45,453 nucleotides of DNA from Escherichia phage vB_EcoS_SD276. The notes under the pieces are model-generated. The model saw only the letters and a list, made by a program, of their open reading frames with translations, was not told the DNA's origin and made no database searches. The translations under genes were made by a program, and so were the position numbers. Shown piece after piece: positions 30,676 through 40,017 of this stretch. The stretch is from the sequence record OR911938.1; one strand, 5' to 3'. Position 1 is the first letter of the stretch, and every line of letters begins with the position of its first letter.

Positions 30676-30934
30676 CCAATAAATCACAGTCGGCAATGTT
30701 GTCTATAACGCGAACGTCAGCGCCGCGGCGGGCCATCCGCTCGTGTTCTCGTACCTGGTGCGGCTTAGGTTTGCCGCCTGGGCGCTTCACTTCGACGAAC
30801 ACTATTTTGCCGTTGATGATGATAATCAGATCGGGCGCACCCGAGCGCCCCTCCCATGCCACTTTGCGGCAGAATCCGCCGACGGCTTTCACCCGTCCCA
30901 TCAAGTGACTTTGAATCTTGCCTTCTGGTGTCAT
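30656..30934 (-). CDS. VRR-NUC domain nuclease
   Basis: Motif PDLIIIINGKIVFVEVKRPGGKPKPHQ (D...E-V-K...Q) typical of VRR-NUC; overlaps polymerase stop. Confidence 0.55.
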   Translation of the reverse strand: MTPEGKIQSHLMGRVKAVGGFCRKVAWEGRSGAPDLIIIINGKIVFVEVKRPGGKPKPHQVREHERMARRGADVRVIDNIADCDLLVAELVA

Positions 30935-33225
30935 TATTTCCTGTACCTGTACATAATGTCGCCTTCCGCTGCAAGCGGGAAGCCTTTCGCCCAAACCGGC
31001 AGGTCGCACATCAGCGCGCACAACTCCTCGGTTGTGTAGTCGTCGGTATCCGGCACTTCGGTTATCAGTTCATCGTGTACGGACAGTACGATCTCATACC
31101 CCGCAGCTTCAACGCCCGGCATGGACCATGCGAGGATATCGCGGCACAGCGCCTGCACGATGTTTTCCGTCAGTTTACCGCCGTAGGTGTACTGGAATCC
31201 CCACTGGCGCGTCGTCTGATTCTCACCCTGATATTTAATGCGGGTGCTGGTGCGCTTCTTGCCGGTGTCTTCGTCGATCTCGGTCGTGACAGACAGCGCG
31301 ATGCCGGGGTAGCTCATGATGCGCCCCGACGGTAACTCAATTTTCAACCACCACCCCGCGGCGTTCGGGTCGTCGCGCTCCTCGTCGAAGGTTGGGTCGT
31401 GCTTCGCCTTCGTGCGGACTATCTTGAGCGCTTTCCTACCATCCGGGCGAACGTTCGCGCCAGCCCAGTACGCTTTGCCAGGATTGCGGATCGCGCAGAG
31501 CACCGCGTCTTCCAGTTCAGCCCAAAATGCTACCGTCTTCGGGTGCGACTCACGCCACATACGTTTGATCGCATCACACGTCAGCCATACGTTTTTCGGC
31601 AGTATATAAGTTGGGCGCTCGTCTTTCTTGCCAGGCTTCGGCGGGCGCTTAGCTTCGTTAATGCGGGCGTATTCATATCCACGTTTCGCCGCTGCCCAAA
31701 TGTGATCGGGGAATGTGCCCTTCATGACGTCCGCCATCGCGTAAAGGTCGAGGCCCAGGTTTTTAGCGAACTGCAAGAACGCGGCAACGCCACCTCCATA
31801 GCCCAACCCCAATTCGCACGCCTTACCAATCTGGCGCAAGTCTTTGCGGTTGGCTTTAATGTATTCCGGGTCGAGGCCGAACATTTTACCGGCAGTCTCA
31901 CAATAAATATCGCGACCGGCCCTAAATACCATTAGCGCGGTTTTCTCGCCAGCGATCCAGGCGAGGCCACGCCCTTCCACGTTGGAGTAGTCCGCTACGA
32001 CAAACTTCTTGCCCTTCGCCGGAATAATGCACCCGCGAACGGTAGAGGCCGTTAGCTTCGATATGTCATATGCCCAGTGCGCTGTCCCGCGTAACAGGGA
32101 GTTGATGCCGTTGGTGAGCATGTGCGACCGCACCCAAAAGGATATATCGCTCTCGCCTTCACGGCGTTTAATCTTCCCTTCGTGGTCGTCGCTATACTCG
32201 CCGCGTGCCAGGTTTTGAGGCTGGAATCCTTTACCGGCCCAACGCAGTGTGCGCTTTGCCCCGCCATACTGGAGACACCCACGGCGGCGACCATCTGCGG
32301 ATAGGCCATTAACGAGCGGATTGTACTTAGTCGACGCCGTGGATGACGCACCGAGGCGCATCTCAATAAGAACTTTGCCTTCGTCGGGGAAGTCTGGATC
32401 TTCCAGCAGGTCGTTAAGCGTGGATTTCTGCGCGTTGTGGATTGTGAACGCAGGAGCGAGGTCGCGCAGCGCTGGCAGGAAGTCATTGCCTGTCAGCTTA
32501 CCGCCGAAGCGCTCCCAGGCTTCTTCCTTCAACTCTTCTTTATGCGCCTGTACCGCCTTGATCGCAGCGCGCGCCAGGTCAACGTCCACATAGAAGCCGC
32601 GGTCATTGATCAACTGGTCAATAAGCAGGATTTCGTCTTCCTTCGGCGTATTACCCCAGTCCGGTATGCGCCAATAGACTTCCCTCATCGCGATGATATC
32701 CAGCGCGGCATAGCGCAGGAATTTAGCCCATTCTTCAGGGTGAGTCTCGCGGGTGTAGCGGCGGATTTTGTAGGTCTTAGGGGTAGGCTTACAGAATCGT
32801 TTGATCAGCGCCTTGCCCGCCTTATCCTTCGCGTGATCTGCGTCAACTCCCAGCACCTGGCACTGCATATCGAGGCTACCAGGCAGCGCGTGCCGAAAGG
32901 CCATAATCATGGTATCTTCGATCTGACCTACCGGCAGGTCAATACCCCACTTCTCGCGAATAACCAGGCGGTCAAACAGGAGGCCGTTAGCCATCACGAT
33001 TTTTGCTTTCTTGCGCGATACCCGGCGGAGCGCCTTGCGCAGTTCACGCGGCATTGTGGGGGACTCGGTGCAATCCCATGTCTGCACGCGGCCCTCGTCG
33101 ATGGCGTATGTGCAAATCATAATCTCGGTAGTTGGGTGTTCCGCGTAGGCGTATGCGCCCACTTTCTTCAGATCCACCCCGCTAAATGTCTCGGTATCGA
33201 GAAACAGGCGTTCGAAGTCTTTCAT
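30934..33225 (-). CDS. DNA polymerase I-type (family A) with N-terminal 3'-5' exonuclease
   Basis: 763 aa; Exo I motif FLDTETF, polymerase motifs (R...GK...LG.GYGG motif A/B region, YGG, VHDE motif C). Confidence 0.9.
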   Translation of the reverse strand: MKDFERLFLDTETFSGVDLKKVGAYAYAEHPTTEIMICTYAIDEGRVQTWDCTESPTMPRELRKALRRVSRKKAKIVMANGLLFDRLVIREKWGIDLPVGQIEDTMIMAFRHALPGSLDMQCQVLGVDADHAKDKAGKALIKRFCKPTPKTYKIRRYTRETHPEEWAKFLRYAALDIIAMREVYWRIPDWGNTPKEDEILLIDQLINDRGFYVDVDLARAAIKAVQAHKEELKEEAWERFGGKLTGNDFLPALRDLAPAFTIHNAQKSTLNDLLEDPDFPDEGKVLIEMRLGASSTASTKYNPLVNGLSADGRRRGCLQYGGAKRTLRWAGKGFQPQNLARGEYSDDHEGKIKRREGESDISFWVRSHMLTNGINSLLRGTAHWAYDISKLTASTVRGCIIPAKGKKFVVADYSNVEGRGLAWIAGEKTALMVFRAGRDIYCETAGKMFGLDPEYIKANRKDLRQIGKACELGLGYGGGVAAFLQFAKNLGLDLYAMADVMKGTFPDHIWAAAKRGYEYARINEAKRPPKPGKKDERPTYILPKNVWLTCDAIKRMWRESHPKTVAFWAELEDAVLCAIRNPGKAYWAGANVRPDGRKALKIVRTKAKHDPTFDEERDDPNAAGWWLKIELPSGRIMSYPGIALSVTTEIDEDTGKKRTSTRIKYQGENQTTRQWGFQYTYGGKLTENIVQALCRDILAWSMPGVEAAGYEIVLSVHDELITEVPDTDDYTTEELCALMCDLPVWAKGFPLAAEGDIMYRYRK

Positions 33226-33398
33226 TGCTTAATCCTCACTACGGCGTCGGCGCTGCCGATCATGGAGAAGATACCATCGGAAAGGGTAATCTCCTCGCCG
33301 TTGTTGCGAATCTCGGCAACTGTGAAATATTCGCCCAGCATTTTGGACCATACTTGCATTCCGACTTTTACTTCGCTGGCTTTAATACGCATTTTCAT
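33222..33398 (-). CDS. small hypothetical protein (58 aa)
   Basis: RBS AGGACA before ATG, stop overlaps polymerase start (ATGA); below 60 aa so absent from track. Confidence 0.35.
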   Translation of the reverse strand: MKMRIKASEVKVGMQVWSKMLGEYFTVAEIRNNGEEITLSDGIFSMIGSADAVVRIKQ

Positions 33399-33403
33399 TG
33401 TCC

Positions 33404-33431
33404 TATTAAAAAGCCCGCATTAAGCGGGCTT
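33404..33431 (-). terminator. terminator-like hairpin (minus strand) after SSB-like gene
   Basis: AAGCCCGC-TTAAT-GCGGGCTT followed by TTTAAT on minus strand. Confidence 0.45.
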
Positions 33432-33449
33432 GAATAGTGGGCTTTGCCC

Positions 33450-34229
33450 TTAACGGCGGCGACGTTTACGTGGTGCTTCGTCTTCGTCGTCTTCGTCCTC
33501 ATCTTCATCGTCGCGCGGCTTACGACGTTTACGAGGTTTCTCATCTTCGTCGTCTTCGTCGTCATCGCGGCGCTTGGACTTTTTGGACTTGCGCGGCTTG
33601 TCGTCTTCGTCATCACGACGTTTTGACTTTTTGGACTTGCGCGGGCTTTCATCTTCGTCATCGTTGTCCAGGTCTTCGTCGGAGCAAGAAGACCCGCCAC
33701 CGCCGAAGGCTTCGCCGTCATCACGGAAGCGCAGACCTAAAAGACCAGCACCGAGTCCCTTGCCGTTGGTATTGTTCCACGCCCAAATATCCAGGGACAC
33801 GTTGCAATAACAACCGGAGTAGATCTCCTGGCCTTCGATCTCGTCGCCTTCTACGGTCAGACCTTGTTCAGTCTGCTTCTCGCCGAGTGACGTTTGAATG
33901 ATCGGCTGTTTGAACGATTTGGCGTTGATGTACAACATGCCTTCGAATTCTTCGGTTACTTCGTCGCGCTCGTCACCGTCGCGAACTGCGCATTCCTTAG
34001 AATCCTGTGCGTAGTGGCGGTCCATCCACTTATCGGCGTTCTTCTCGGATTTCAGCTTGTCGGTGAGCACTGCGCGCGCTGCCGCTTCCACTTTGTCCAC
34101 CTGCGGATCTTCTTTATCCAGAAGAATCACGGCACGGTATGCCGGTTTTTGTCCATCCTGTTTAGGGGTATCACGTTCCCAAATTTTCAGGAAACATACG
34201 CGCACATTTTTCAGGTTGACTTTAGCCAT
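33450..34229 (-). CDS. ssDNA-binding-like protein (gp2.5/DUF2815-like) with repetitive charged C-terminal tail
   Basis: N-terminus MAKVNLKNVRV and segment YSGCYCNVSLDIWAWNNTNGKGLGAGLLGLRF resemble phage SSB-like proteins; C-terminal PRKSKKSKRRDDEDD repeats. Confidence 0.5.
   Translation of the reverse strand: MAKVNLKNVRVCFLKIWERDTPKQDGQKPAYRAVILLDKEDPQVDKVEAAARAVLTDKLKSEKNADKWMDRHYAQDSKECAVRDGDERDEVTEEFEGMLYINAKSFKQPIIQTSLGEKQTEQGLTVEGDEIEGQEIYSGCYCNVSLDIWAWNNTNGKGLGAGLLGLRFRDDGEAFGGGGSSCSDEDLDNDDEDESPRKSKKSKRRDDEDDKPRKSKKSKRRDDDEDDEDEKPRKRRKPRDDEDEDEDDEDEAPRKRRRR
33555..33655. repeat. ~48-bp tandem repeat (2 units) inside SSB-like gene
   Basis: Near-identical DNA units encoding (S/K)PRKSKKSKRRDDEDD. 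Confidence 0.6.
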
Positions 34230-34294
34230 TTTCCAATTCCTCATTTTCACATGTATCGGGGTTATTGTGAGCCACCCCGTTCGGCTTGGTTGCT

Positions 34295-34323
34295 AATCTA
34301 CTTGGTTGCGCCTAAGCGGTCAA
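34295..34323 (-). promoter_or_regulatory. sigma70-like promoter (TTGACC-N17-TAGATT)
   Basis: Hexamers on minus strand upstream of SSB-like gene, GCAACCAAG boxes. Confidence 0.5.
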
Positions 34324-34562
34324 GCACTTTCATTAAAAAGATTTCTGGTCACGTAGTTGGTAGCGTTCTCGATCCAGCTTAACGGCGGTCGGTCGATGTT
34401 CTTCTCCACCCAGTCGACGGCAGCGTCACTATATCCGTCATCCAGCCAGCGGGTCGGATGGCGAATCATCCACGCCACCATTAACACGCCTTGCACGCAA
34501 TGCAGGATAAAGCCCAGCGCGCCGAGCAAAAACATCAATAAGATCGCAAATACTTTATTCAT
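34320..34562 (-). CDS. small membrane protein
   Basis: N-terminal hydrophobic helices (FAILLMFLLGALGFIL, VLMVAWMI). Confidence 0.4.
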   Translation of the reverse strand: MNKVFAILLMFLLGALGFILHCVQGVLMVAWMIRHPTRWLDDGYSDAAVDWVEKNIDRPPLSWIENATNYVTRNLFNESA

Positions 34563-35985
34563 TGCTTAAGTCCTCGTCAGTGGCCTCCGACCACGCAGGG
34601 CGCGGGTCGTCGATTGGTGCTAACACCGGTTTAGCCGGTGCGCGCGTGATTTTATCACATAATTTCGCCCACACTTTCGGCTTCTCGTCCTTCAATACCT
34701 TCTCGGCATCCGTAGGACTGAGCAATGTTTCTTTGTACATCACATCGCGCTTGATCCGGGCCTTCGTGAAGATTTCAATCACTTCGCTCTCGTCCGCCCA
34801 CTTACGGATCCCTTCCTTACCGGCAACCATCTTGAGGCCTAGCGATTCGCCATCGCCCGCCATGACCGCCTTGAATACCGCGTACTCGATAGCCTTGATG
34901 TGCTGGCGCATCGCATCAAGGCCTTCATAAGCCTTGCGCAGTTCCGCCGCGCTCATAGCGCCGGGGGCCGCTTCTTTCTTGCCACGCTTCGCACGTCGTG
35001 CCGCCTTGCGGGCTTCGCGGGCCATATTGCGGTCGTGATTGGCGCATTCTTCCTCGGTCGCCACGCTCACGTCGTCGCCCAGGTCTTCGTCGGTTGCCGT
35101 TGGTGGTGTCATCGTGTCAATTGCGGCCTTAGCGCGGGCACTACACTGATCCGCAAATCGGCACCACTGGCACGCATCAACGCTGGGCCGGAAGTCAGCG
35201 CGGGTTAATCCCTTCTTGCCGCGGGCGTATGCCTCGAGCGCGGCGATAGCACGCTTGGACGCAAACTTCGCGAATATCTCCAGGGCTTCTACCGAAATAT
35301 CCCACTCTGACGCCCCGCCGCAATACGGCTGGAAGATGACCAGGCGCACGGTCGTAATGTCGTACATGGTTTGCAGCTTGCGCAGCAGGCCCAGTGCGTA
35401 CAACATAAGCTGTTTGTTTTCTTTCGCCTCGACCTTATGTCGCCCGGTCTTCAGGTCGCCGACGATCAGCATGTACGTGCCGTCGGTCTTCTTCATGACC
35501 ATGACCATATCGGCAGTACCGAACGTTTTAATCCTGTTGCCGTCGATCTCGAAGCCTGAGTGAAGGACGCGGGTCAGATCGGTGCGCATCTCAAGCTGGA
35601 CAAACTCCGCCACCTCAAGGAGCGGTCGCCAGTGGTCGATGTATGCATCGCACTGTTTCACCATATCGTCGTTGACCAGTACGCCGCCTTTCGGTGCTTT
35701 TGGGTGGGCCTTTACCGGTCCCTTGCCTTCGTTCTCGACGTAGCACCCTTTATACGTCTTAGCGGTTATTTTCTTCTCACCGGCGATAATGCGGTTTAGC
35801 ACCACCTCCGATACGGTGTGCATACTCGTACCGTTAATCGCCGCCTGACCGGATTCGTTCGGGATATCTTTTTCGACCACCAGGGCGGCGGGACACCCCA
35901 TCCATTTTTTGGCACCGGATGGGCCAAGTAATGAGTGTTCCGTATTACTACCGGATTGCGTTTTACGTTTTGGTTTAATCGCCAT
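34555..35985 (-). CDS. Cas4/RecB-like PD-(D/E)xK exonuclease with Fe-S-type Cys cluster
   Basis: N-terminal SLLGPSGAKKWMGCP plus C-x2-C-x5-C (CQWCRFADQC) arrangement characteristic of Cas4/AddB-type nucleases. Confidence 0.65.
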   Translation of the reverse strand: MAIKPKRKTQSGSNTEHSLLGPSGAKKWMGCPAALVVEKDIPNESGQAAINGTSMHTVSEVVLNRIIAGEKKITAKTYKGCYVENEGKGPVKAHPKAPKGGVLVNDDMVKQCDAYIDHWRPLLEVAEFVQLEMRTDLTRVLHSGFEIDGNRIKTFGTADMVMVMKKTDGTYMLIVGDLKTGRHKVEAKENKQLMLYALGLLRKLQTMYDITTVRLVIFQPYCGGASEWDISVEALEIFAKFASKRAIAALEAYARGKKGLTRADFRPSVDACQWCRFADQCSARAKAAIDTMTPPTATDEDLGDDVSVATEEECANHDRNMAREARKAARRAKRGKKEAAPGAMSAAELRKAYEGLDAMRQHIKAIEYAVFKAVMAGDGESLGLKMVAGKEGIRKWADESEVIEIFTKARIKRDVMYKETLLSPTDAEKVLKDEKPKVWAKLCDKITRAPAKPVLAPIDDPRPAWSEATDEDLSNE

Positions 35986-37752: not shown

Positions 37753-40017
37753 ATGAGCTTAATTAAATTCGCGGTAACACGACCCGCTAAAAAAGGCGAA
37801 AAAGCCAGGGCGGAAAACTTCCAGATGACCACCGATGAATTTTTCGAATTTATCAATGACGCGAAAGAAATCTCCTCGGTGCATATCAACAAGACGGAAG
37901 ATAAAGCCGAGTATGCGCGCCGCAAGCGTAAGGCCGATGGCATCGTGGCATATACCAGTGACGGCTTACGCCGCAAGACCAGTGCGGTGGACCGCTCGAT
38001 CCTGTTCTTCGATATTGACCGTACCGACACCCGCACCCTACGCCGCTGCCGTAAGGCTTTCATCGACGCGGGGCTGGAGCATGTATTCCACACAACCACC
38101 GGCGACCGCCACCCACTGAAAGGCGGAACGCGTTGCGCTCGCTTCCTGGTACTCACTGACAAGCCTGTCCCGGCTGAAGACCTGGGCCGTGTCCAGTATG
38201 CGCTATTACACCAACTTGGTCTGTCAGATGTGGACTTCGACGATTGTACGAAGGACACAAACCGTCTTATGTACCTGCCTCACCAGCAGTCTGTCATTAA
38301 GTGCCACCACGGCAAGCGCGCCAATGTGCGGCGTCTGCTCCGCCTGGCGGACAAGCTGGGGGTGGAGAAAGAGGAAGTACGCCGCGAGCTTACCCAGGGC
38401 GACGACGCAGTGGCGGACGGTATTCTGGACTGGTGCTTCCAGGCAGGATTCGAGGAGTTATCTTCCGGTCGCGGTTATGAAGTTCCGTGCCCGAACGAGC
38501 ATCTGCACAGCGGCGAAGGGTCGACGGCTATCATGGTTAAGGATGGCGAGATCCGTTTCAAATGTATGCACACCGGCAACGAGTGTTGCTCGGAGCTAAA
38601 TAGACACCAGCACCTTGCGCTACGTCTTATCGGGATACCGGACCACCTGAACGTCGAGCCGCACAACATGTCCCGTAAGCAAATCGCCGCCATCCTCCCA
38701 GGGCTGGACGACGAGGAAGTCGAATCCTTATATGAACATATTGTTGATGCGGTTGGCGACGGCGAAGAATACGGCGTGTGCACCGATGCGGATCTGGATA
38801 ACGAGCCGGTTGCGCTGTTCAGTAAGCACGACCCGATCATCGAGGGGTTGATTAACTTTAAATCGACCTGGTATATGGCGGGTGAGTCGAATATCGGCAA
38901 GTCCTTCTACGTGCTGGGGCAGATGGGCGCGGTTGCCGCGGGGATCCCGTTTGGTGGTGCGAAGGTAGTCCAGTCGCATTGCTTCTATTTTGATGCGGAA
39001 GGCGGCGAAGCCTCCAACCAGCGCAAAGAAGCATTGCAGATTAAATATGAGCACGACCTGGACAAGCTGCACATTATAGACCTGCAATCCCGCGGCTGGG
39101 ATATCACCAGCAAGTCCGGTTTGCGCGAAGTTATCAGCTTTATCAACCGCACTGCTAACGGCGAACCGGTTGGCCTGGTGGCGTTCGACTCACTCAACCA
39201 GACTGTTGCGCTGCGGTCCGCCGATGCTAAACCGTTTGACGAGAACAACGCCAGCGATATGGGTGAAGTGGTCAAAGCGCTGAAAGCCATTGCGGAAAAT
39301 ACAGGTGGCAGTGCGGGCGTCATCCACCACCCGGCGAAGGGTGCAAACGGCAGCAGATCTCCCCGTGGGTCCGGCGCACTGCATGGCGCTGTCGATTCTG
39401 CGTTCTTCCTGGAACAGCCGGACGACAACCAGCCGGGACAACTTAACCTGTACCACGAAAAATCACGTAACGGCATCAAGCAAGCGCCGCGTGGCTTCGT
39501 CCTGCTCAAGTGCAAGGTGGAGGTGGATCTCCGCAAGTCAGAAGCGTTCGCGTCGCACCAGTCCACCAGCACCGGGCCGGACTTCGGAGACGTCGTTGCC
39601 GGTTGGGACGTCAAACCAATTGCGTCCACCCCGCGCGATGAGACTCTATACCTCGTACCGGTCGCCCTGGAACCGTTCGCTATAGAACAGGCGAAGGCGG
39701 CGGGCAAAGCCGCAGTTAAGGAAGAAAACGCCGCCGGTCCGCGCAACGAAAAAGAGAAAGTGCTTTATGCGGCCCTGGAAAAACTGATGGAAGATAACCC
39801 GAACCATACCGGCTTCAGTAAATCGGCAATTGTCCGCCAGGCTGGACTCGCGAAGGGTGGTACTTCGACGAAGGCAATCGACGATATGGTCGAGCGCGGC
39901 GTGATTGGTTTCTATTCAGATCCGCACACCGGGGCCATCTATGGGTCGTCGAATTTAGTCATCAAATCGGATATCCCCATAACGCTTTCGGCGACCGATG
40001 ATGACCTGAACGATTAA
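37753..40017 (+). CDS. primase-polymerase (AEP-like) / helicase-ATPase fusion protein
   Basis: N-terminal DxD motif ILFFDIDRTD, central Cys/His zinc-binding region, C-terminal RecA-like ATPase with Walker A GESNIGKS and Walker B LVAFDSLNQ. Confidence 0.7.
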   Translation: MSLIKFAVTRPAKKGEKARAENFQMTTDEFFEFINDAKEISSVHINKTEDKAEYARRKRKADGIVAYTSDGLRRKTSAVDRSILFFDIDRTDTRTLRRCRKAFIDAGLEHVFHTTTGDRHPLKGGTRCARFLVLTDKPVPAEDLGRVQYALLHQLGLSDVDFDDCTKDTNRLMYLPHQQSVIKCHHGKRANVRRLLRLADKLGVEKEEVRRELTQGDDAVADGILDWCFQAGFEELSSGRGYEVPCPNEHLHSGEGSTAIMVKDGEIRFKCMHTGNECCSELNRHQHLALRLIGIPDHLNVEPHNMSRKQIAAILPGLDDEEVESLYEHIVDAVGDGEEYGVCTDADLDNEPVALFSKHDPIIEGLINFKSTWYMAGESNIGKSFYVLGQMGAVAAGIPFGGAKVVQSHCFYFDAEGGEASNQRKEALQIKYEHDLDKLHIIDLQSRGWDITSKSGLREVISFINRTANGEPVGLVAFDSLNQTVALRSADAKPFDENNASDMGEVVKALKAIAENTGGSAGVIHHPAKGANGSRSPRGSGALHGAVDSAFFLEQPDDNQPGQLNLYHEKSRNGIKQAPRGFVLLKCKVEVDLRKSEAFASHQSTSTGPDFGDVVAGWDVKPIASTPRDETLYLVPVALEPFAIEQAKAAGKAAVKEENAAGPRNEKEKVLYAALEKLMEDNPNHTGFSKSAIVRQAGLAKGGTSTKAIDDMVERGVIGFYSDPHTGAIYGSSNLVIKSDIPITLSATDDDLND

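Follow-up and report, generated by a model that had tools for sequence, protein, structure and literature searches.

What kind of protein carries a tail in which basic and acidic blocks alternate, and what might such a tail do? Escherichia phage vB_EcoS_SD276 (OR911938.1) raises this question through one gene in the 45,453-nucleotide stretch analyzed here (the window), which a preliminary description made from the sequence alone had marked as coding for an SSB-like protein (SSB, single-stranded DNA-binding protein) with a tandemly repeated, charged C-terminal tail. An acidic tail has been called characteristic of all prokaryotic and phage SSBs (PMC5686142). Our analysis indicates that the tail in question belongs to a T7-type SSB, that it opens with an acidic motif also found on two other replication proteins of the same phage, and that it continues into alternating blocks whose number varies among close relatives. 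The relevant features are the following:

33450..34229, minus strand: the SSB gene, 259 amino acids (aa) plus stop (list of open reading frames, Pfam, PHROG and PDB sequence matches).
33705..34229, minus strand: the OB-fold domain for binding single-stranded DNA (ssDNA), residues 1-175, followed by a GGGGSSC linker (AlphaFold2, Foldseek).
33648..33683, minus strand: the proximal acidic block SDEDLDNDDEDE, residues 183-194, holding an S/T-D-E/D-D-L motif (alignment, motif scan).
33453..33647, minus strand: the mixed-charge repeat region, residues 195-259, with four basic and three acidic blocks in alternation (sequence, model confidence).
33552..33662, no strand assigned: a 48-bp DNA tandem repeat of 2.3 copies, which encodes two PRKSKKSKRR-acidic units (Tandem Repeats Finder).
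33615..33644, minus strand: basic block 1, PRKSKKSKRR, residues 196-205 (sequence).
33567..33596, minus strand: basic block 2, PRKSKKSKRR, residues 212-221, missing from several close relatives (sequence, alignment).
33513..33536, minus strand: basic block 3, PRKRRKPR, residues 232-239, missing from SECphi4 and others (sequence, alignment).
33453..33473, minus strand: the terminal basic block PRKRRRR, residues 253-259 (sequence, alignment).

The minus-strand open reading frame (ORF) spans 33450-34250, and the ATG at 34229 is its likely start, giving the 259-aa protein (the annotated SECphi18 orthologue has 261 aa); this exact protein is absent from a collection of 15 billion proteins. Its residues 10-200 match the Pfam family PF10991 (Enc34_ssDNA-bd, formerly DUF2815, the family of Enc34 ORF6) with an E-value of 3.5e-31 and 108.7 bits, the curated cut-off being 26 bits, and the protein matches PHROG 112 (Gp2.5-like ssDNA-binding and annealing protein) with an E-value of 9e-57. 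A sequence search of the PDB recovered the DUF2815 structures 4klk and 4jg2 along with the Enc34 SSB 5odj, and Enc34 ORF6 is known to bind ssDNA preferentially (PMC5686142), a property that is also implied for the SECphi4 SSB. In an AlphaFold2 model built from 70 homologues the predicted local distance difference test (pLDDT) stands at 93-98 across residues 1-170, and Foldseek comparison of the model with the PDB retrieved 4klk (1e-12), the Enc34 SSB with ssDNA, 5odl (3.6e-12), and T7 gp2.5, 1je5 (3e-6), at a probability of 1.00. Thus the predicted structure has the T7-type OB fold, and both the early SSB assignment and the N-terminal OB fold, for which structure prediction had been proposed as a check, are borne out. 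No Pfam match to the bacterial SSB family (PF00436) was obtained, and the C-terminus is PRKRRRR with no DDDIPF-like tip. The protein departs from the norm of PF10991 and T7-type SSBs in its tail, which is not purely acidic (28 K/R against 35 D/E, with a basic end); this is a departure in one accessory feature and leaves the OB-domain homology uncontradicted.

Residues 184-259 read DEDLDNDDEDES-PRKSKKSKRR-DDEDDK-PRKSKKSKRR-DDDEDDEDEK-PRKRRKPR-DDEDEDEDDEDEA-PRKRRRR, followed by the stop codon. The tail is therefore 76 residues long rather than the approximately 80 first estimated, while its reported RKRRRR terminus is found as part of PRKRRRR. Its purely acidic part is limited to the proximal 12 residues, and D191 is nearly invariant among the 70 homologues. 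The 48-bp DNA repeat seen earlier in the tail-coding region was recovered by Tandem Repeats Finder with a period of 48, 85% matches and a score of 159, which is the top score in the window; at the protein level the repeat units hold for the two exact copies of PRKSKKSKRR, while the other two basic blocks (PRKRRKPR and PRKRRRR) are degenerate. Charged residues make up 83% of the tail (28 K/R and 35 D/E), with a net charge of -7, or -0.09 per residue. The charge-patterning parameter kappa is 0.53, which lies above all 300 shuffles of the tail (0.096 +/- 0.045, maximum 0.27), and hence the blockiness is far beyond chance and is not an effect of composition. Past residue 180 the AlphaFold2 model has pLDDT values of 48-61 and no secondary structure save for one turn at 184-187. 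By its charged fraction of 0.83, near-neutrality, non-random blocks and predicted disorder, the tail is thus, as modelled, an intrinsically disordered, finely blocky polyampholyte.

How far such tails extend in the family depends on the manner of searching. An initial word-indexed homologue search favours relatives with similar low-complexity tails (111 of its 117 matches were of the mixed-charge type), and because of this bias the survey was redone with the OB domain alone. The tail-blind survey against 1.84 billion cluster representatives yielded 2088 matches at E <= 1e-3, and tail statistics were drawn from the best 147 of these, a full-length domain match being required. Among these relatives the median tail has 27 residues, with 1 K/R and 9 D/E; any basic block is present in 18 of the 147, at least two basic together with at least two acidic blocks in 8, and a basic-cluster end in 5. 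The mixed-charge tail is a minority variant, yet numerous divergent lineages possess it, and distant ones reach 11 blocks and tail lengths of 192 residues. The earlier remark that the tail is unlike the usual acidic tails of phage SSBs agrees both with these medians and with the Enc34 tail, which is purely acidic with 16 D/E in its last 29 residues (PMC5686142).

The canonical tail of the family has three parts, namely an acidic motif 1 with a Phe or Leu, a short spacer, and motif 2, an acidic-hydrophobic C-terminus. In some lineages (L023, L028, L041) mixed-charge units in series take the place of the spacer, with motif 2 retained; in Dhillonvirus, the Guernseyvirinae genera Jerseyvirus and Kagunavirus, and phage Tsm2 motif 2 has been lost and the chain ends in arginines. 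Named phages illustrate the range: Tsm2 (Guernseyvirinae) has three basic blocks and a basic end (...RRSRRRR), VSiA (Cornellvirus) two basic blocks and an acidic end (...SYEDDEE), SETP13 and Sciku (Jerseyvirus, Kagunavirus) one basic block and a basic end (...DDLEDDEDETPRRERRRNR in SETP13), and BPP-1 (Rauchvirus) no basic block and the canonical acidic end, DLV. A pooled sample of 118 mixed-charge tails with 485 basic blocks, many of them from homologues whose OB domains are only 27-40% identical to that of the window, shows a shared grammar: 82% of the basic blocks have a proline within their first 4 residues, 82% of the internal ones end in R, an aspartate comes next after the block in 89%, and the median length is 9 residues for basic and acidic blocks alike. 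On 245 OB domains a neighbour-joining tree requires 16 parsimony changes of tail type, which would hint at several origins, but the tree is too weak to tell repeated gain from poor resolution. Homologues occur in 779 cultured records, mostly of Salmonella phages (354) and Escherichia phages (243). Our literature searches found no description of a mixed-charge or alternating acidic-and-basic SSB tail, and the papers found cover acidic tails; the tail is an undescribed variant of the SSB tail, in a known family and common in well-studied enteric phages.

At the nucleotide level the region matches 155 phage records with 80-99% identity, almost all of them E. coli Dhillonviruses, including SSL-2009a, HK578, SECphi18 and SO-1. 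The OB domains compared within this group are 94-100% identical in all loci but L016 (86%), and on this near-constant domain the number of basic blocks differs: one in phage welsh (202 aa, tail ...SDEDLDNDDEDEAPRKRRRR), two in L011, P0003, P0283 and P0286, three in L003, L009, L010, L012 and SECphi4, and four in the window SSB and most other Dhillonviruses compared. At least six distinct deletion/duplication architectures of the tail are seen, and every indel in intact genes is in frame. The length variability anticipated in the preliminary description is thus real as regards block number, while the two ends of the tail are fixed: the proximal SDEDL...DDEDE block and the terminal PRKRRRR are kept in all intact sequences with a 94-100% identical OB domain, and the divergent L016 has close variants of both, its C-terminus being PRSRRNRR. 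Pairwise Nei-Gojobori estimates from 17 sequences gave a ratio of nonsynonymous to synonymous differences (pN/pS) of 0.167 for the tail and 0.083 for the OB domain, with similar synonymous rates (pS 0.335 vs 0.305), indicating purifying selection on the peptide with no extra constraint at the DNA level. The two PRKSKKSKRR copies of the window differ at 4 nucleotides, all of them synonymous, with 0 non-synonymous differences.

The proximal acidic block leads to the second element of the finding. We scanned the window in six frames, over ORFs of at least 80 aa, for the pattern [STAV][DE][DE]D[LFI], and it has only four matches in the whole window, one at the C-terminus of the helicase-primase, two in the exonuclease and one in the SSB tail. 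This shared motif lies outside the segment covered by the preliminary description and is a new observation. The SSB tail starts with SCSDEDLDNDD (ATDDDLGDDD in close relatives), and the other proteins concerned are:

34555..35985, minus strand: DUF2800 PD-(D/E)XK exonuclease (Pfam PF10926, PF12705), with the C-terminus ...EATDEDLSNE (34558-34587; in fuller form ...WSEATDEDLSNE) and the internal motif TATDEDLGDD (core 35080-35094).
37753..40017, plus strand: helicase-primase (AAA_25; Pfam), with the C-terminus ...SATDDDLND (39988-40014).
30934..33225, minus strand: family A DNA polymerase (Pfam, PHROG), motif-free, ending in ...MYRYRK.

The same arrangement recurs in other phages, with the sequences given here up to the stop codon for the two enzymes and for the Enc34 SSB:

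Sciku: helicase-primase ...VTEEDLE; exonuclease ...VTEEDLE; SSB SVDDLEDD.
SETP13: helicase-primase ...TTEGDLE; exonuclease ...VTEDDLEA; SSB SVDDLEDDE.
VSiA: helicase-primase ...SEEDDLEN; exonuclease ...ATDSDLDD; SSB ATDDDLDD.
Tsm2: helicase-primase ...ATYDDLE; exonuclease ...ASDVDLA; SSB ATDDDLEG.
Enc34: primase ...PFDDEDEV; exonuclease ...AYDDEDEDDDEV; SSB ...AYDEDEDEWDEDEV.

Similar acidic ends are also seen on the small terminase (...EADDDEV) and ORF3 (...GEEEEV) of Enc34. The sharing of one acidic-hydrophobic peptide by SSB and helicase-primase is in the style of T7 and is seen in five other genera too; departing from the T7 style, the motif of the window SSB is not at the extreme C-terminus and has a Leu in place of the aromatic residue. 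In the five Dhillonvirus/Guernseyvirinae lineages examined the cognate exonuclease and helicase-primase terminate with motif 1 only, and in the canonical-tail lineages the whole SSB tail is copied on the exonuclease, as in BPP-1 (exonuclease ...ADDFADVSGETVEDLV vs SSB ...EDEFDDITEGAAAADLV), L040 (both proteins finish in AEAFV) and L041 (SEFDD on both). The exonuclease and SSB motifs co-vary across lineages: in a permutation test over 18 lineages cognate exonuclease C-termini and SSB tails match with a summed score of 420 vs 349 +/- 19 for non-cognate pairs (p ~2.5e-4), and with 11 well-separated lineages p is ~0.003. The polymerases of the lineages examined never have the motif and end in ...YRYRK, which is no more than suggestive; by analogy with T7 gp5 the polymerase is a candidate receptor of the shared peptide. 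A separate observation concerns the internal segment of the exonuclease (residues ~296-345, 35000-35100, minus strand), TATDEDLGDDVSVATEEE...REARKAARRAKRGKKE, which runs from the motif through an acidic stretch to a basic block in the order of the first SSB-tail unit, and which sits in an insertion relative to the DUF2800 model.

Comparison with known systems helps place both elements. The Enc34 ORF6 SSB (5ODJ, 5ODK, 5ODL) resembles the window SSB in its homologous OB domain, gene order and disordered tail, and in having its tail motif also on the exonuclease and primase C-termini; it differs in that its 29-residue tail, with 16 D/E and no basic blocks, ends in ...DEDEV, as against 76 residues and 28 K/R in the window. 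Deletion of the Enc34 tail permits binding of double-stranded DNA, and in the crystal the part of the tail that can be traced, with its AY motif, occupies the groove formed by the beta-sheet of the adjacent SSB, burying 842 A2 (PMC5686142). [quoted passage not shown] The two SSBs are ~12% identical, and the T7 end is an essential acidic stretch plus a Phe, whereas the motif of the window SSB is internal and is followed by repeats and oligo-arginine. The gp2.5 tail does contain one small basic-to-acidic junction, KASKPR/DEE (...SAKASKPRDEESWDEDD...), with the x-P-R/D-E grammar of the window repeats. The SSBs of SECphi4 and SECphi18 are orthologues with tails of the same type; the SECphi18 OB domain is 99.4% identical to that of the window, and the SECphi4 protein differs in having three basic blocks, PRKRRKPR being absent. 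Bacterial SSBs have the same progression from OB domain through disordered linker to an acidic partner-docking peptide, and in distant relatives of the window SSB the mixed-charge repeats stand, linker-like, between the proximal motif and an acidic-hydrophobic tip; the bacterial proteins are unlike the window SSB in belonging to a different OB family, in being tetramers with an uncharged Gly/Pro/Gln-rich linker, and in possessing the acidic-hydrophobic tip. Finally, the mixed-charge domains of eukaryotes (R/D, R/E and RS-like, as in nuclear-speckle proteins) also consist of disordered alternating basic and acidic tracts, and some distant homologues (RDRDRGRSRDRDD...) look very similar to them; they show no homology, have dipeptide repeats rather than blocks of ~9 residues, and contrast with the Lys-rich blocks of Dhillonvirus, so that we take them as a lead only.

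In light of the above we propose, with a probability of about 55%, that this protein is the replication and recombination SSB of Dhillonvirus, a monomeric member of the Enc34 ORF6/DUF2815 family with the T7-type OB fold, and that its tail has two layers, a conserved docking-like peptide and a variable charge-patterned module with a basic end. Given that the proximal block is the peptide with which the helicase-primase and the exonuclease end, SDEDLDNDDEDE would most likely be a replisome docking peptide, a counterpart of the acidic tails that gp2.5 and gp4 have in T7; the receptor shared by these peptides would be either the DNA polymerase or, on an adjacent SSB molecule, the groove of the concave beta-sheet. 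The distal units, each a Pro-initiated basic block of ~9 residues and an acidic block of ~9 residues, present in one to four copies, stand in for the family's usual short spacer and acidic-hydrophobic tip and may provide electrostatic contacts that are multivalent and sensitive to salt. In the absence of DNA the basic blocks might neutralize or mask the acidic ones, and on DNA they could bind the backbone or the acidic tails of a neighbouring SSB, the exonuclease or the helicase, by which cooperativity, strand annealing and partner recruitment would be tuned. In-frame slippage within the 48-bp repeat, or unequal recombination there, may shift the number of units.

Several points weigh against this proposal. 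The sequence charge decoration (SCD) of the tail, -1.69 vs -0.40 +/- 1.06 for shuffles, is only ~1.2 standard deviations lower because the blocks are short (~9 residues); the charges are only modestly segregated over long range, and it is this kind of segregation that is most closely linked to strong self-association. The isolation of phage welsh, which lacks internal repeats, indicates that a phage can live without the internal units, whose benefit could be no more than mild. As the C-terminal aromatic residue is essential in T7, the analogy with that phage is inexact: in the helicase-primase and exonuclease the motif Leu is followed by 2-3 further residues, and in the SSB the motif is internal, 72 residues short of the C-terminus. 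In BPP-1 and the metagenomic lineages L023 and L025 no sharing with the helicase or primase was seen. Lastly, the published model of the SECphi4 SSB covered residues 1-186 and left the flexible C-terminus undisplayed (bioRxiv 10.1101/2022.08.27.505566).

Other explanations can be set against the two-layer tail. A neutral expansion, in which slippage in a purine-rich repeat lengthens a tolerant linker and the charge pattern is merely harmless, would fit the DNA tandem repeat, the different block numbers of near-identical phages and a tail pN/pS twice that of the OB domain, and the viable one-block phage keeps it alive by showing the internal units to be non-essential; we nevertheless consider it unlikely, as the tail pN/pS is well under 1, the PRKSKKSKRR copies differ only synonymously, the terminal PRKRRRR is invariant among closely related Dhillonviruses with all intact-gene indels in frame, homologues with distant OB domains carry such tails, and the pooled tails share a strict block grammar. 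A condensate scaffold, with the SSB phase-separating by complex coacervation with itself, DNA and acidic-tailed partners and with block number as valency, is suggested by the highly charged, near-neutral and blocky tail and by the relatives with up to 11 blocks. Precedents exist in the arginine-rich mixed-charge domains that drive length-dependent condensation in eukaryotes (bioRxiv 10.1101/771592), which distant arginine-rich relatives recall, and in E. coli SSB, which phase-separates via its disordered linker (bioRxiv 10.1101/797431). Yet the SCD is near shuffled values, the Dhillonvirus blocks are rich in lysine, a poor substitute for arginine in those domains (bioRxiv 10.1101/771592), and T7-type SSBs are monomers or dimers, which implies low oligomeric valency; a condensate role is not favoured by the SCD or the lysine-rich blocks, and appears to us unlikely, somewhat less probable than neutral expansion.

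The tail might also vary through an arms race with SSB-sensing defence systems (Retron-Eco8, ShosTA, type III Sir2-HerA). The SECphi4 and SECphi18 SSBs trigger Retron-Eco8 (bioRxiv 10.1101/2022.08.27.505566), a Dhillonvirus SSB triggers type III Sir2-HerA (PMC13434337), and block number does vary among isolates. Against this, the reported escape from Retron-Eco8 involves T56P and a promoter change, with F106V and N152H given in the ShosTA rows (Table S2, bioRxiv 10.1101/2022.08.27.505566); these three substitutions of the orthologues map to the OB domain, all escape changes fall outside the tail, and the tail ends are invariant rather than diversifying. Deletion of the T7 gp2.5 C-tail, too, was without effect on Retron-Eco8 activation. 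We hold defence evasion to be improbable. Still less can be said for a DNA-level element (iterons, an origin or a pac site) or an overlapping gene, which we rate as very improbable and rejected as candidates. A tandem DNA repeat is present, and an alternative-frame ORF of 109 codons (33395-33724, minus strand) covers the tail and is the frame read in three database proteins; set against these, the synonymous rate of the tail is the same as in the rest of the gene, and 80% of codon shuffles leave the +1 frame free of stops, which marks the alternative ORF as an artefact of composition and counts against a programmed frameshift as well. The three database proteins, from Ioannina (L026, OQ589852.1, 686-1540), vB_EcoS-22664B1 (P0005) and P0008, have K/T/M-rich SSB tails in the +1 frame. 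Ioannina, the sole frameshifted entry inspected at the DNA level, has a 1-nt deletion in a GGCGGCGG run, and its other frame still holds the normal tail together with the stop codon; a sequencing error is the probable cause, and the annotation of this entry as a 284-aa protein is wrong. To the nuclear-localization-like import signal raised at the outset we give practically no credence: the K/R clusters resemble classical signals of this kind in composition only, the host being E. coli and the phage a siphovirus, a Dhillonvirus of 45 kb and not a nucleus-forming jumbo phage.

The gene lies in a replication module that comprises the DUF2800 exonuclease upstream of the SSB, an ORF for an 80-aa membrane protein, the SSB itself, an ORF of 56/58 aa and the family A polymerase downstream, and that continues with VRR-NUC, an SNF2 helicase and Dam, the AAA_25 helicase-primase being on the other strand. 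The order exonuclease-SSB-polymerase is also found in SECphi18, Tsm2, VSiA, SETP13, Sciku, BPP-1, Enc34 and metagenomic contigs, and the distant long-tail homologues have the gene order exonuclease, SSB, polymerase and SNF2 helicase. Two further features lie next to the SSB gene:

33222-33398, minus strand: the 56/58-aa ORF, PHROG 10102 (ORF list, PHROG).
33411..33431, minus strand: a GC-rich hairpin, AAGCCCGC-TTAAT-GCGGGCTT, with the loop TTAAT/ATTAA, in the gap that separates the SSB stop codon from the 56/58-aa ORF (sequence).

The terminator scan did not call the hairpin at 33411-33431. In SECphi4, published defence-escape mutations (ATTAA to TTAAT, +TT and G to T) map upstream of the gene for the 56-aa protein, within the intergenic region that corresponds to the one with this hairpin. 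Some database entries that touch this region call for caution. The 80-aa membrane ORF (34320-34562, minus strand) bears the spurious name 'mature oligodendrocyte transmembrane protein', and the SSB of GRNsp27 (NC_069147.1) that of 'cell envelope-associated transcriptional attenuator'. Two records, OQ221563.1 (labelled Acinetobacter phage NJ01) and MG065648.1 (labelled Campylobacter phage A144), share 95-98% identity with E. coli Dhillonviruses over this region; their host labels look doubtful and perhaps reflect contamination or mislabelling. An entry from Hevea brasiliensis (P0115, GH714_044142), with a phage SSB tail and a DUF2800 annotation, is probably phage contamination of a plant assembly. 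At the contig end of L014 (IMGVR_UViG_3300045988_003101) the SSB frame finishes in ...AVSYTHLRAHET, which resembles a translated Nextera adapter and, if this reading is right, would be untrimmed adapter.

These observations bear on phage SSBs in general. The finding contradicts the general statement, made in textbook and structural papers, that an acidic C-terminal tail is common to every bacterial and phage SSB: in Dhillonvirus, Jerseyvirus, Kagunavirus and Cornellvirus all those examined have basic blocks in the SSB tail, and three of the four end in arginines, while Salmonella and Escherichia phages make up a large share of the cultured records with this type of SSB. Such SSBs now serve, in work that disregards the tail, as models of what triggers anti-phage defence systems. 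A more speculative extension, to which we attach only a small likelihood, is that the alternating-charge tail is a tunable valency module that makes a monomeric T7-type SSB the electrostatic scaffold of a replication and recombination compartment. If so, the acidic S/T-D-E-D-L tails on the helicase-primase, the exonuclease and neighbouring SSBs would be bound by the basic blocks, the material properties of the compartment and its fitness would depend on the repeat number (1-4 here, up to 11 elsewhere), and replisomes would be held together by a co-evolving terminal-peptide code in which the SSB tail is both ligand and receptor. The natural allelic series of 1-4 blocks on a constant OB domain offers a route to the effect of charge-patterned disorder on an SSB, and the peptide common to SSB, exonuclease and helicase-primase provides a directly testable map of replisome contacts in a replication module that is very common.

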